Notes: generated by a model from the sequence alone, not told the origin. A DNA stretch of 38,932 nt from an uncultured Muribaculaceae bacterium (GCA_964372175.1 CAYJPP010000004.1:1-38932); one strand, 5' to 3'; positions 29,019-32,851 are shown, counted from the stretch's first letter. Program-made: numbers and translations.

Positions 29019-30167
29019 ATGTTTAGAAAAAAAGAAGAATCTAATTTAAATTATACAAGATTAAATAAACTAATTTCTCTTGGACATTCTGTTTTAAAAG
29101 TATTATTTTTTGTTTTAATAGTAGCTGGTATATATGTTGCTACAATTGTTTTACGAGATACAGGTATTATTAAATATTTATTTATAATTTTAGGTATTTT
29201 ATCTCCGTTATTTATAGGAATTGTAATTGCATGGTTATTTGATCCGATCGTTACCTTTTTAAATAAAAAAGGACTCCGTAGAAGCTTTGGGGCAGCAGCT
29301 TGCTATTTAGTTCTATTTATTATAATATTTTTGGTATTAAACTCAATAATTCCATTATTGGCAGATCAAATAAATGAGTTTGTCAGTAATACGATACCGG
29401 GGGTTATAGCGACTTTTGAAACATGGATTAATATTGCTTTTGATGAACTTAAAAGTATTGAAGGTTTTGACGTTGAAGCTTTTCAAGGCAATGCCTTTGC
29501 GCAATTTGAAAATATTATAGGTGGTATAGTAAGTGCTTTACCTGATTTCTTAGTTTCATTTGTAACAGGTTTGTTTTCAGGTATTGGTGTATTTGTAATT
29601 GGTTTAATTATAGGATTTATGTTATTAATTGATTTTGATAAGCATAGTTCGAATTTGTTTAACTTATTTCCTAGAAAACAAAGAAAAAATGCTCGTGAAA
29701 TAGCAGAGGTTATTGATAGCCCACTTAGAAATTTCGTTAAGGGTGCTTTAATAGATAGTTCAGTTGTCTTTGTATTAAGTTCAATTGCATTTTCTATAAT
29801 AGGATTAGAGTCACCAATCGTATTTGCATTATTTTGTGCGATAACCAATATAATACCTTATGCTGGGCCATATATTGGTGGGGCACCAGCTGTTTTAGTA
29901 GGTTTAACACAAAGTATACCAATAGGTCTAGGAGTACTTATTACGGTTGCTGTTTTACAATTTATTGAAGGTAACTTCTTACAACCATTTATTATGAGTA
30001 AAACAACCAAAGTAAATCCAGTTTTAATAATATCAGGTTTATTAGTATTTGGATATTTCTTTGGAATATTAGGTATGATTTTATCAACACCTATTCTTGC
30101 AACAATTAAAGAATTATTTACATATTTTAATAATAAATATGAATTAATAAATATTAAAGTAGATTAG
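29019..30167 (+). CDS. AI-2E family transporter (PerM/YdbI-like permease)
   Basis: Polytopic membrane protein with NIIPYAGPYIGGAP and FIEGNFLQP motifs. Confidence 0.85.
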   Translation: MFRKKEESNLNYTRLNKLISLGHSVLKVLFFVLIVAGIYVATIVLRDTGIIKYLFIILGILSPLFIGIVIAWLFDPIVTFLNKKGLRRSFGAAACYLVLFIIIFLVLNSIIPLLADQINEFVSNTIPGVIATFETWINIAFDELKSIEGFDVEAFQGNAFAQFENIIGGIVSALPDFLVSFVTGLFSGIGVFVIGLIIGFMLLIDFDKHSSNLFNLFPRKQRKNAREIAEVIDSPLRNFVKGALIDSSVVFVLSSIAFSIIGLESPIVFALFCAITNIIPYAGPYIGGAPAVLVGLTQSIPIGLGVLITVAVLQFIEGNFLQPFIMSKTTKVNPVLIISGLLVFGYFFGILGMILSTPILATIKELFTYFNNKYELINIKVD

Positions 30168-30178
30168 TCTACTTTTTT
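30156..30178 (+). terminator. intrinsic terminator after the AI-2E permease gene
   Basis: AAAGTAGA / TCTACTTT stem with TTAG loop, then a T-run. Overlaps the stop codon. Confidence 0.7.
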
Positions 30179-30238
30179 ATTTTAACTTAAATAAAATCAT
30201 ATTTTTTTAATATAACAGTGTACATAAGTTAAAAATTA

Positions 30239-30247
30239 TGATATATT
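30239..30247 (+). promoter_or_regulatory. extended -10 element (TGaTATATT) upstream of the pilin-like gene
   Basis: Read directly. A TGTACA -35-like hexamer lies 17 nt upstream. GGAGG SD follows at about 30272. Confidence 0.35.
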
Positions 30248-30282
30248 TATATAGGATACATAGTTTAAGAAGGAGGAATTGT

Positions 30283-31857
30283 ATGCAAGAAAAAAATGTA
30301 GGTAAGCCTTATAAATCAGCGTTTACATTAATAGAATTATTAGCAGTTATAATAATTTTAGCAATAGTAGCTTTAATAGCAACACCAATAATATTAGATG
30401 TGATAGAAGATGCAGAAAAATCTGCTAATCTTTCAGAAGCGAATTTAATATTAAGTGGAGCAGAAACATTTTACGCAACAAGTAGGTTAACAGAAGAAAA
30501 TGAAGAATTATTTGATGGAAAAGAAAATGTATATGATTTTATGGACCTGACAGGAGAAACATTAGAATATGCAACAATAAAAATTGATAAAGAAGGGAAG
30601 ATAACATTAGCGTTGTGGATAGATAATAAATGTTATGAAAAAGCATCAACAGAAGAAAAAATAGAAATAGATGAAACAGTAACAGAAGGAAGTAGTTGTG
30701 CATCAAAAACAGATGTAACAGAACCAGAAGTGCCATCAACTGAAAATATTACAGTAGCATTACCAACAGGACTAGTACCTGTAAAAATATCATATGATGA
30801 AAATGATTCAGTTGCATCTGGAATAATAACAGTAGCAGATACAAATGAAGAATGGTATGATTATGATAATAGTGAGTGGGCAAATGCAGTTGTAGTGAAT
30901 GATGAAACATACAGAACAGCTGCTGCTGGAACTATAATTCCAACAAGCGCAATAGAACAAATGTATGTGTACATCCCACGATATAAGTACGAAATATTTT
31001 CATCCAACACACCGATAACTGTTAATATTGAGTTTGAAGATAAAGATGTAGATACAAAAGAAGTAGTGCTGTTAACAAGTGATCCAGCAAGTGTAGCAGG
31101 AGAGTGGTTAACCCACCCAGCATTCTCATATACAGAAGAAGATGGAACAACAGTTGAATTAGACGGAATATGGGTAGGAAAGTTTGAGCAGGGATCGGAA
31201 AGTAAAATAATTCCTAATATAAATTCTTATGGCAATTTTAGTATGCATTCTCTATATACACTAATAATAAATGGAAATGGAAAAAATGGATTAAATAGTA
31301 CATCAGATATACATATGTTAAAAAATAGTGAATGGGGAGCTATATTGTATTTATCGCAATCTAATTATGGAATATGCAAAACAGCCCCAAATGAAAATTG
31401 TTCACAATCAATTTCAAATAGTTTAGGTTCAGATGGTTATAAATGGAATACCCCAAATGGAGTTATTGCAAGTACGACGCATAATATAACTGGTATATAT
31501 GATATGGCTGGTGAGAATACTGAATATATGATGGCAGTAGGGAATCAAGAGATAAGTTCTCTTGGAATTGATCCCGCACCAAAACAAAAATACTATGATA
31601 ATTATGAATTAGCGAGTAGTGATAATATATATACATTTGGTTTATTAGGAGATGCAACAAAGGAAATGCAACCAAGTGATAGTAATGTAACATGGAATGA
31701 AAGTGACGCATACTTTATAAATTCAGTGACTGGTTCTTGGTTTAGACGCGGAGGCTTGGGAGATTCAGTTTCAGATTCTGATGCATTCGCATTCCATAAT
31801 AGTGGCGCGTTTAACTCATACAATTCTGGACGTTCAGCCCTTTGGGTAATAGAATAA
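30283..31857 (+). CDS. prepilin-type N-terminal domain protein with large C-terminal FGE-sulfatase/C-lectin-like region
   Basis: KSAFTLIELLAVIIILAIVALIATP is a class III (pilin) signal with Glu+5. C-terminal GIWVGKFE and TGIYDMAGENTEYM resemble the GxYDMxGNVWEW motif. ATG 30283 follows AGGAGG. Confidence 0.75.
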   Translation: MQEKNVGKPYKSAFTLIELLAVIIILAIVALIATPIILDVIEDAEKSANLSEANLILSGAETFYATSRLTEENEELFDGKENVYDFMDLTGETLEYATIKIDKEGKITLALWIDNKCYEKASTEEKIEIDETVTEGSSCASKTDVTEPEVPSTENITVALPTGLVPVKISYDENDSVASGIITVADTNEEWYDYDNSEWANAVVVNDETYRTAAAGTIIPTSAIEQMYVYIPRYKYEIFSSNTPITVNIEFEDKDVDTKEVVLLTSDPASVAGEWLTHPAFSYTEEDGTTVELDGIWVGKFEQGSESKIIPNINSYGNFSMHSLYTLIINGNGKNGLNSTSDIHMLKNSEWGAILYLSQSNYGICKTAPNENCSQSISNSLGSDGYKWNTPNGVIASTTHNITGIYDMAGENTEYMMAVGNQEISSLGIDPAPKQKYYDNYELASSDNIYTFGLLGDATKEMQPSDSNVTWNESDAYFINSVTGSWFRRGGLGDSVSDSDAFAFHNSGAFNSYNSGRSALWVIE

Positions 31858-31858
31858 A

Positions 31859-32851
31859 TTATAATAAAACACTGAAACTTATGGCAATCAATGAAGCGAT
31901 TAGTCCTATAATCCAAAATAGTTTAACTATTTCTGCTTCATTCCAGCCTAGTTTTTCAAATGTGTGATGAATAGGAGTCATTAAAAAGACTCTTTTTTTT
32001 GTGAATTTATAATATATTCTTTGTATTATGCAGGTAGTTGTTTCGATTACAAATACTATTCCAATTAATATTAATAGTAGTTCATGTCTTGTTATGATTG
32101 CTATGGCTCCTAGGGTTGCTCCTAGGGATAATGAGCCGGTGTCGCCCATAAATATTTTGGCTGGATTAACATTAAATACTAAGAATCCTAATATTGAGCC
32201 TACTAATGAAAAACACAATAGGGCTATACTTTCGTATCCTTCTAACCATCCTGTGTTGTATGTTATAATTCCAAAGGTTAAGAAGGCTATTAATGTTAGA
32301 CCGCCTGCTAGGCCATCTAGTCCATCTGTTATATTAACTGAGTTTGATGATGATAACAAGACGAACAAAATAAATAATCCATATACAAAGCCCATTTCTA
32401 TTTTTATATCTAGTGAATGAATCCATAATAGTGGTTCGTTGCCTGATTTCATAAATAGATAGAAAAATATAATGGCTATTATCACTTGGAGTATAAGTTT
32501 TTTTCCTTCTGATAGTCCTTTATTATTATTTTTAATTATTATTAAATAATCATCTATAAATCCTATTAGACCGTAGCTTAAAAATGTAAATATAATAATT
32601 ATTAAATTATATGATATGTTTATTTTATTTGTTATAAGCATTACTAACATTATTATAATGGTTGATGTAATAAATATAAGTCCTCCCATGGTGGGCGTTC
32701 CTATTTTTTTTTGATGGCTTGTTCTTAGGTAATCATTTAGTCTTTGGTTTGCTTTTAACTTTTTTAATATAGGTATTAAGATAAATCCTATCAACATTGC
32801 TAATATAAAACTAGCAAGTAAAACAATAACTGCTTTTGTTAATAATAACAT
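31859..32851 (-). CDS. mraY: phospho-N-acetylmuramoyl-pentapeptide-transferase
   Basis: NITDGLDGLAGG, FMGDTGSLSLG and PIHHTFE motifs. 10-TM pattern. Confidence 0.95.
   Translation of the reverse strand: MLLLTKAVIVLLASFILAMLIGFILIPILKKLKANQRLNDYLRTSHQKKIGTPTMGGLIFITSTIIIMLVMLITNKINISYNLIIIIFTFLSYGLIGFIDDYLIIIKNNNKGLSEGKKLILQVIIAIIFFYLFMKSGNEPLLWIHSLDIKIEMGFVYGLFILFVLLSSSNSVNITDGLDGLAGGLTLIAFLTFGIITYNTGWLEGYESIALLCFSLVGSILGFLVFNVNPAKIFMGDTGSLSLGATLGAIAIITRHELLLILIGIVFVIETTTCIIQRIYYKFTKKRVFLMTPIHHTFEKLGWNEAEIVKLFWIIGLIASLIAISFSVLL

Follow-up and report, generated by a model that had tools for sequence, protein, structure and literature searches.

Modular pilins were defined from two Streptococcus sanguinis proteins, PilB, with a vWA module, and PilC, with a lectin module (Raynaud et al. 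2021, PMC8179133; Shahin et al. 2023, PMC9934059). The gene described here lies in a 38,932-nucleotide stretch of DNA from an uncultured Muribaculaceae bacterium (GCA_964372175.1, CAYJPP010000004.1:1-38932; hereafter the window) and encodes P0001, a 524-residue modular type IV pilin-like protein in which a prepilin signal and pilin stalk are joined to a C-terminal head of predicted C-type-lectin (CLec) fold. We consider it probable that P0001 is a minor pilin processed by the prepilin peptidase PilD, that its head is a binding module carried by the single type IV filament system of the genome, and that it is a static member of a repertoire diversified in some relatives by diversity-generating retroelements (DGRs).

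Like S. sanguinis PilB and PilC, P0001 has a class III signal, a small pilin module, a short linker and a bulky putative ligand-binding module, and in both cases the host is a monoderm in which a filament is predicted to display the module. The head is an FGE-type CLec domain here, whereas those of the S. sanguinis proteins are vWA or concanavalin-like. The scale also differs: S. sanguinis has two such genes, and the present 1.1-Mb genome has about 20 that share one stalk and are scattered outside a pil operon. Alanine at position −1 is common in the present set, and the system is known from sequence and models. The published modular pilin catalogue already lists comparable architectures, among them prepilin-plus-SUMF (IPR012902-IPR005532; 8 proteins in Dataset S1) and prepilin-plus-DUF1566 (Raynaud et al. 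2021, PMC8179133).

The head resembles TaqVP (PDB 5VF4), the variable protein of a Thermus aquaticus DGR, which is an FGE-subtype CLec protein with its variable region in the last 40 residues and has been compared with TvpA and Mtd (Handa et al. 2018, doi 10.1101/432187). TaqVP is the best structural match and the only PDB profile match of P0001 outside the pilin region, and the scaffold of the variable region likewise occupies the last ~40 residues of P0001. As with DGR proteins of the TaqVP type, homologs in related genomes are accompanied by adenine-specific template and variable repeats, Avd and a reverse transcriptase. Unlike TaqVP and Mtd, P0001 carries a pilin stalk, and no template, reverse transcriptase or Avd was found in its own genome.

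Two further systems are relevant. In gut Bacteroides, DGRs diversify the adhesive tips of Type V pili (bioRxiv 10.1101/2024.11.15.621889). These tips, like P0001, place a variable lectin domain of DGR type on a pilus subunit of a gut bacterium; they belong to diderms and a lipoprotein pathway, whereas P0001 belongs to a type IV filament system of a monoderm and its own copy has no DGR. Surveys of DGRs mention pilin-type targets only in passing, and no paper treating type IV pilins as DGR targets in detail was found in the literature. In the Sulfolobus bindosome, as here, many large binding proteins that do not resemble filament subunits share a prepilin-type signal, and their surface display depends on a PilB/PilC-like system (PMC3047682). 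The bindosome is archaeal and serves solute uptake, whereas the heads found here are lectin, leucine-rich repeat (LRR) and glycosidase-like domains on a stalk that keeps the full pilin fold.

Stalk and head of P0001

The P0001 gene is identified by its open reading frame (ORF) and by profile and homolog matches; it runs on the plus strand from an ATG at 30283 to a TAA at 31855-31857 (30283..31857), as do all protein features given below. Its N-terminus reads MQEKNVGKPYKSA followed by FTLIELLAVIIILAIVALIATP, with Ala at −1, Phe at +1 and Glu at +5. This region matches PF07963 (E 1.3e-6; 28.1 bits, cut-off 21.2) and TIGR02532 (24.3 bits, cut-off 16.3) and aligns with alpha1 in solved type IV pilins, S. 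sanguinis PilE1 among them. A charged leader precedes a hydrophobic stretch, with the junction between KSA and FTLIELLAVIIILAIVALIATP. The class III signal proposed in the preliminary description, which was made from the window alone, is therefore genuine. Cleavage is predicted after Ala13, giving a leader of 13 residues (MQEKNVGKPYKSA; 30283..30321) that is longer than the 3-4-residue leaders of the paralogs.

Residues 14-145 (30322..30717) are predicted to adopt a pilin fold, a long helix packed on an antiparallel beta-sheet, based on an AlphaFold2 model, matches to solved pilins and tblastn. In this module the hydrophobic alpha1 helix, which carries Glu at +5, is accompanied by a beta-sheet of four strands, and a pair of Cys residues is conserved. 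The model places the helix at residues 16-70 and the strands at 96-130, with a predicted local distance difference test score (pLDDT) of 85-93 over residues 20-140. Glu at +5 is invariant in the family alignment, and about 20 genes of the genome have the module, at 47-59% identity. It is followed by a low-confidence linker (residues 146-159), with pLDDT falling to 54 around residues 145-152, and by a small beta-rich neck (residues 160-225), which together span 30718..30957 and are delimited by AlphaFold2 confidence, alignments and the domain model. The neck carries a conserved W-Y-x-Y-x4-W-A-N-A motif (alignments A1 and A3).

The head occupies residues ~226-524 (30958..31854), and its FGE-type CLec fold is assigned from a domain model, Foldseek and a profile match; the core CLec domain begins at about residue 340. 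It contains HPAF, GIWVGKFE, EWGAILYL and GIYDMAGENTEY, and the motifs quoted previously (GIWVGKFE, EWGAILYLSQSNYG and TGIYDMAGENTEYM) all occur in the product. Modelled alone from 73 sequences (residues 155-524), the head reached a pLDDT of 83.5 and a predicted template-modelling score (pTM) of 0.90. P0001 thus has the make-up of a modular pilin: a pilin module at residues 14-145, a linker, and a head that folds by itself in the model.

The top Foldseek match of the head model is TaqVP (5vf4; E 2e-7, probability 1.0, template-modelling (TM) score 0.42), at 12% sequence identity, followed by PorK, FGE (5nyy, 6xtq, 6s07), EgtB and OvoA. These matches substantiate the FGE-sulfatase/C-type-lectin fold suggested earlier for the C-terminal region. 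A search of viral models returned 14 proteins of tail-fibre type at E ≤ 1e-3, and the full-length model retrieved nothing above noise (best E 0.5). By sequence, the family profile matches 5vf4 at E 2.7e-4 and 4.7e-3, and 5VF4 is the one PDB sequence that it matches outside the pilin region. Pfam sees little of this head. No protein of the genome matches PF03781 above the cut-off, and 25 of 55 homologs match it weakly; in four of the five homologs detailed, the match is confined to the GxYDMxG motif (profile positions ~155-194). The head is most likely a binding module, an adhesin or a receptor, and its display on a pilin stalk, as suggested in the preliminary description, is the most likely reading.

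Pilus machinery and the stalk and head repertoire

The window is one contig (C4) of an assembly of 1.108 Mb in 75 contigs (G000; 27% GC, 91.9% complete). No A24 peptidase, T2SSE or T2SSF match was found on this contig, in agreement with the earlier statement that the window holds no prepilin peptidase, pilus ATPase or platform gene. All three are present elsewhere in the genome. An A24 prepilin peptidase (PilD) lies at C12:17073-17825 (PF01478, 48.5 bits), directly downstream of a 619-residue platform protein of PilC/GspF type (T2SSF; C12:15204-17063), and PF00482 matches twice on contig C12. A 461-residue ATPase of PilB/GspE type is encoded at C11:3498-4883 (PF00437, 422 bits), adjoined by two small minor-pilin-like genes. 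By NCBIfam, the ATPase is nearest to GspE/PilB and the platform protein to GspF/PilC.

The genome also holds 27 matches to the N_methyl motif, and 21 ORFs begin with a near-identical N-terminus, MKKAFTLIELLAVIIILAIVALIATPIILDVIDE. Their −1 residue is Ala in 13 and Gly in 8, so Ala at −1, previously remarked upon as an oddity, is the majority form. About 20 copies of a 140-residue pilin module were recovered by tblastn with residues 1-154 as query, and the C-terminal module was found in the same way in 10 copies. Other heads on the same stalk are a BspA-type LRR domain (LRR_5), DUF4434, LamG (Laminin_G_3) and an Ig-like domain. The stalk and head gene set makes up about 3% of the genome, which also encodes candidate major pilins of 116-133 residues. 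With PilD, a PilC-like protein, a PilB-type ATPase, 27 prepilin motifs, some 20 stalks and 10 heads in the genome, P0001 is not the orphan it had been taken for. Because it is one of about 10 paralogs with this head and one of about 20 genes with the same stalk, the gene belongs to a repertoire that has expanded throughout a lineage of gut Bacilli with small genomes.

Several members of this repertoire have features of their own. The closest paralog of P0001 (551 residues) is encoded at the locus C1:44504-47200 (minus strand), directly downstream of a gene for a 133-residue ComGC/GspG-like pilin, which is in turn preceded by a gene for an acidic tail-anchored protein. The two pilin genes of this locus are strongly A-biased at four-fold degenerate sites and the upstream gene mildly so (A minus T 0.11). 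The 133-residue protein is a candidate major pilin for the clade. At C18:6911-12387 (plus strand), two tandem pilin-stalk proteins of about 900 residues each have DUF4434 (glycosidase-like) and a C-terminal domain whose FGE motif is closer to the canonical form (NIYDIAGNLREWTNE ... GFRAVLF). An 860-codon gene at C30:10797-13379 (plus strand) has the architecture of the paralog on contig C7, namely a pilin stalk, an Ig-like region and a CLec head. It is broken by one in-frame TGA at codon 326, which may mark a pseudogene, an assembly error or a read-through site.

The CLec head also occurs behind two other N-terminal anchors, at C15:14353-15711 and C43:1703-3481 in this genome and in the related loci L020, L041, L042, L052, L053, L056, L058 and L066. 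One anchor is a hydrophobic start ('KGFAISG...') without Glu at +5; the other is a transmembrane helix ending in '...VGYSALNT.L.ISG'.

The readings of P0001 weighed here and below overlap; their likelihoods were judged separately and are not meant to add up to one. On the reading that we consider probable, the 13-residue leader would be cut after Ala13 by the PilD encoded on contig C12, and the alpha1 helix with Glu at +5, together with the pilin fold, would allow uptake by the single PilB/PilC-type machinery encoded elsewhere in the genome. A filament, or a short membrane-anchored stalk, would then present the head outside the cell. The head would act as an adhesin or receptor of the CLec type found in the DGR variable proteins TaqVP, TvpA and Mtd and in phage tail fibres, and its last ~40 residues would form the ligand-binding face.

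A number of observations weigh against this reading. A genome search found a single ATPase and no PilT, so retraction is unlikely, and the pilin gene adjoins no pilus gene. Pfam and NCBIfam detect the N-terminal motif of P0001 alone, with no PF03781 match at E ≤ 1, and alignment with five true FGE domains by hhalign covered 24 columns of the GxYDMxG motif at a probability of 45%. The structural match to TaqVP has a TM score as low as 0.42 and depends on a predicted model.

An alternative is a protein that never polymerises. The class III signal could serve as a PilD-processed membrane anchor or export tag, leaving P0001 on its own helix or released, with the head still binding; we regard this as rather unlikely. 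The number of large stalk proteins (about 20, up to 904 residues) far exceeds the few minor pilins usual for a filament, the same head sits behind two non-prepilin anchors in this and related genomes, and the gene is solitary and outside any pilus operon. There is also a precedent in the sugar-binding proteins of the Sulfolobus bindosome, which have class III signals (PMC3047682). However, the stalk has a full predicted pilin fold rather than a helix alone, and the invariant Glu at +5 is consistent with assembly into a filament. The genome has a complete PilB/PilC/PilD set as well as small candidate major pilins (116-133 residues), and one of these, of 133 residues, is encoded directly upstream of the closest paralog.

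Family distribution, codon usage and gene surroundings

Sequence searches returned at least 2,949 homolog clusters, mostly of 510-530 residues with a prepilin motif, from metagenome-assembled genomes (MAGs) labelled 'Bacilli bacterium'. The nearest relatives of P0001 are paralogs in its own genome, at 48-52% identity as against at most 41% elsewhere. A set of 80 related loci (L014-L093) was drawn from gut MAGs of human, mouse, rabbit and other origin, in many cases with several loci from one genome. Among 41 genomes of the same order, 24 had homologs, with a maximum of 31 matches in one genome, and the number of N_methyl motifs ranged from 0 to 35 across 61 genomes of the order (0.7-1.6 Mb). 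P0001 is thus a member of a large, catalogued but unstudied family and not a foreign orphan. Two features are distinctive: how large the repertoire is for such a small genome, and the codon bias of the whole family.

The gene strongly prefers A-ending codons. Of its four-fold sites, a fraction of 0.646 carries A; the mean for the genome is 0.403 ± 0.081, which puts the gene at z 3.0 and at the 99.4th percentile of 956 ORFs. For A minus T it ranks third among the 406 ORFs of at least 300 residues (z 3.6). ATA accounts for 35 of its 45 Ile codons, and the bias spans both the pilin part and the head. The codon preference noted earlier is therefore a genuine outlier in genome-wide statistics, at z of about 3 to 3.6. 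The closest paralogs, on contigs C7, C1 and C30 and in part C33, share the bias, which is absent from stalk paralogs with other heads and from more distant head paralogs. The homolog exceeds its flanking genes in A bias at 77 of 78 related loci from other genomes (mean difference 0.34; Wilcoxon p 2e-14). Because so many related loci show it, the bias belongs to the family over the long term and does not point to a recent entry into this genome.

Two candidate causes of the bias were rejected. Genes for EF-Tu, ribosomal proteins, RpoB, enolase and GAPDH fall in the middle of the distribution, which speaks against expression level. Strand does not account for it either, since it is the minus-strand genes of the contig that are the more A-biased and the P0001 gene is on the plus strand. 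One possibility is a pool of genes in common with phages.

The A-ending codons had been read as the imprint of a foreign donor, with P0001 as a recently and horizontally acquired orphan. This origin is improbable. In its favour, the bias is extreme for this genome and covers the whole gene, including a stalk whose paralogs with other heads lack it; the other A-biased outliers of the genome are small accessory genes; and the structural relatives of the head include phage tail fibres, so that a pool shared between phage and host is possible. Against transfer stand the comparable excess over neighbouring genes at 77 of the 78 related loci, which come from many genomes, the presence of the nearest relatives in the same genome, and an unremarkable G+C content at third codon positions (GC3; 59th percentile). 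No mobile-element genes flank the pilin gene. The adjoining core gene, mraY, is just as biased (A at four-fold sites 0.63, second of the 406 long ORFs), which weakens a simple foreign-gene explanation. Gene order gives no help: in 13 relatives with an orthologous permease gene, neither a pilin gene nor mraY lies within 1.5 kb of it. Since the order is not kept at this distance, synteny could not show an insertion.

In the window, the P0001 gene stands between the permease gene and mraY, which is encoded on the minus strand (31859-32851) and converges on the pilin gene with a gap of 1 nt. A Shine-Dalgarno sequence read from the sequence, AAGGAGG (30270..30276, plus strand), lies 6 nt 5' of the ATG at 30283, and the gene that the preliminary description gave for a 524-residue product is real. 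Further upstream, folding of the plus strand predicts an AT-rich hairpin followed by a T-run (30156..30183; stem 30156-30163 / 30168-30175). This is a probable weak intrinsic terminator of the upstream permease gene. The terminator previously assigned to the pilin gene is thus present as a hairpin and T-run, but it is weak, its hairpin (30156-30175) encloses the TAG stop of the permease gene, and with only 2 G-C pairs it falls below the scan rule of at least 3.

The promoter-like element also proposed there fares less well. The site, TGTACA-17-TATATT with a TG extension (30219..30247, plus strand), is weak, with 9 of 12 matches, and sites of this kind are no more frequent in the region than expected by chance (15 found, 15.1 expected). 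The three antisense ORFs reported over the gene are all present in the ORF listing (minus strand; 30539-30739, 31463-31711 and 31602-31916) and have low-complexity products. They are judged spurious because the sense frame has more than 2,900 homologs.

Retroelement-linked relatives and the role of the head

The head of P0001 belongs to a family that is hypermutated by DGRs, a link that the preliminary description had missed. Repeat pairs of 116-158 nt occur in 6 of the 80 related loci, with 90-100% of the mismatches at adenines of one copy. In L022, L026, L037, L044 and L059 the variable copy forms the 3' end of the homolog; in L086, the other copy of the pair lies in an ORF different from the homolog. 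The templates translate into stretches of Asn (AAC codons), such as NPWFIRGGNYNNGSNTGVFNFNNNTGGVNSNNSFRLVLTP. A reverse transcriptase and Avd lie downstream of the homolog in 8 of the 80 loci, and four of these eight homologs have a prepilin N-terminus. A full cassette is found at L026:5998-9989, comprising a 551-residue prepilin-type variable protein, a template repeat, a 123-residue ORF, an Avd-like 118-residue ORF and a 350-residue reverse transcriptase. Apparently complete cassettes were also seen beside homologs in L022, L037, L044, L057, L059, L068 and L086. In L026, a homolog of the permease gene of the window lies just past the cassette.

Alignment with DGR-linked homologs and translated templates places the equivalent of the variable region at residues 486-521 of P0001 (WFRRGGLGDSVSDSDAFAFHNSGAFNSYNSGRSALW; 31738..31845, plus strand). 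The scaffold is kept at W486, F487, R489, G490, G491, F502, G508 and R517, and P0001 has non-Asn residues where the related templates carry AAC codons. It therefore combines a CLec fold with a variable-region scaffold at the extreme C-terminus, the arrangement that characterises DGR variable proteins. The tail has a GC content of 0.46, compared with 0.32 in the rest of the gene and near the 99th percentile of the genome background, and its GC3 is 12/40, compared with 15% elsewhere in the gene (Fisher p 0.019). This GC-rich tail is suggestive, and no more than suggestive, of an old retroelement imprint.

Searches of the 91.9% complete assembly of its own genome gave no match to RVT_1, and tblastn with related reverse transcriptase and Avd sequences likewise gave none. 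No template repeat or adenine-specific repeat pair was found for P0001 or any paralog in the 1.1-Mb assembly. One 57-nt repeat on contig C2 (2895-2951 and 3446-3502) differs at 10 positions, of which 8 are adenines in the first copy, and is too short to be called a DGR pair. Given the lack of RVT_1, Avd and adenine-specific repeats, and with mraY only 1 nt away leaving no room for a cassette, the P0001 copy is most likely static and possibly a formerly diversified variant.

It is very doubtful that P0001 is instead an active target, diversified at residues 486-521 in trans by a reverse transcriptase, Avd and template encoded on an unassembled or unbinned part of the genome. The incomplete assembly in 75 contigs, the DGR-linked homologs in 8 of 80 loci and the base composition of the tail would all accommodate such an arrangement. 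They are opposed by the negative searches and the lack of room downstream, and by tail codons that are mostly AT-ending, whereas the repeats of active relatives have about 50% GC.

The same C-terminal site bears on whether the head could be an enzyme, as had also been proposed. In FGE, a Cys pair after the RGGS motif is catalytic and binds copper. P0001 resembles FGE (T. curvata FGE, PDB 5nyy and 6xtq; PF03781) in overall fold and in part of the GxYDMxGNVWEW motif; it differs in failing to reach the Pfam threshold and in lacking the copper-binding pair. The true PF03781 proteins fetched for comparison carry the pair in RGGS[FY]LCH..[FY]CKRY, and P0001 has RRGGLGDSVSD at that place and no Cys after residue 373. 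Because the catalytic pair is missing, an enzymatic role, and with it the enzymatic module of the preliminary description, appears very unlikely from the sequence. A surface-displayed oxidase of the FGE, EgtB or OvoA kind, acting on a cysteine or histidine substrate, is accordingly most improbable in spite of the superfamily fold and the partly kept motif, as the best matches, TaqVP and phage fibres, are non-enzymatic binding proteins and relatives are hypermutated at exactly this site, which is incompatible with a fixed active site.

These comparisons also bear on annotation. A solitary prepilin gene should not be called an orphan before the whole genome has been searched, and a codon outlier is no evidence of transfer where the whole family shares the bias. 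Pfam misses the head in P0001 and gives at most weak, motif-only matches in 25 of 55 homologs, suggesting that modular pilins are far commoner than domain databases indicate.

A wider picture can be drawn tentatively. In this order of gut Bacilli with genomes of 0.7-1.6 Mb, the single type IV machinery may act as a general display platform for swappable modular pilins, here about 20 genes on one stalk that make up about 3% of the genome, with some CLec heads made hypervariable by DGRs. P0001 would then be a frozen, formerly variable copy, and the A-ending preference of the family would point to a pool of genes held in common with phage tail fibres. Gut Bacilli with small genomes are abundant and uncultured, and they presumably rely on the host or on partner organisms. 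If this picture is correct, the roughly 20 pilin-borne heads would be the chief means by which they adhere and would offer a way to find their ligands; some of these heads are diversified by retroelements in relatives.

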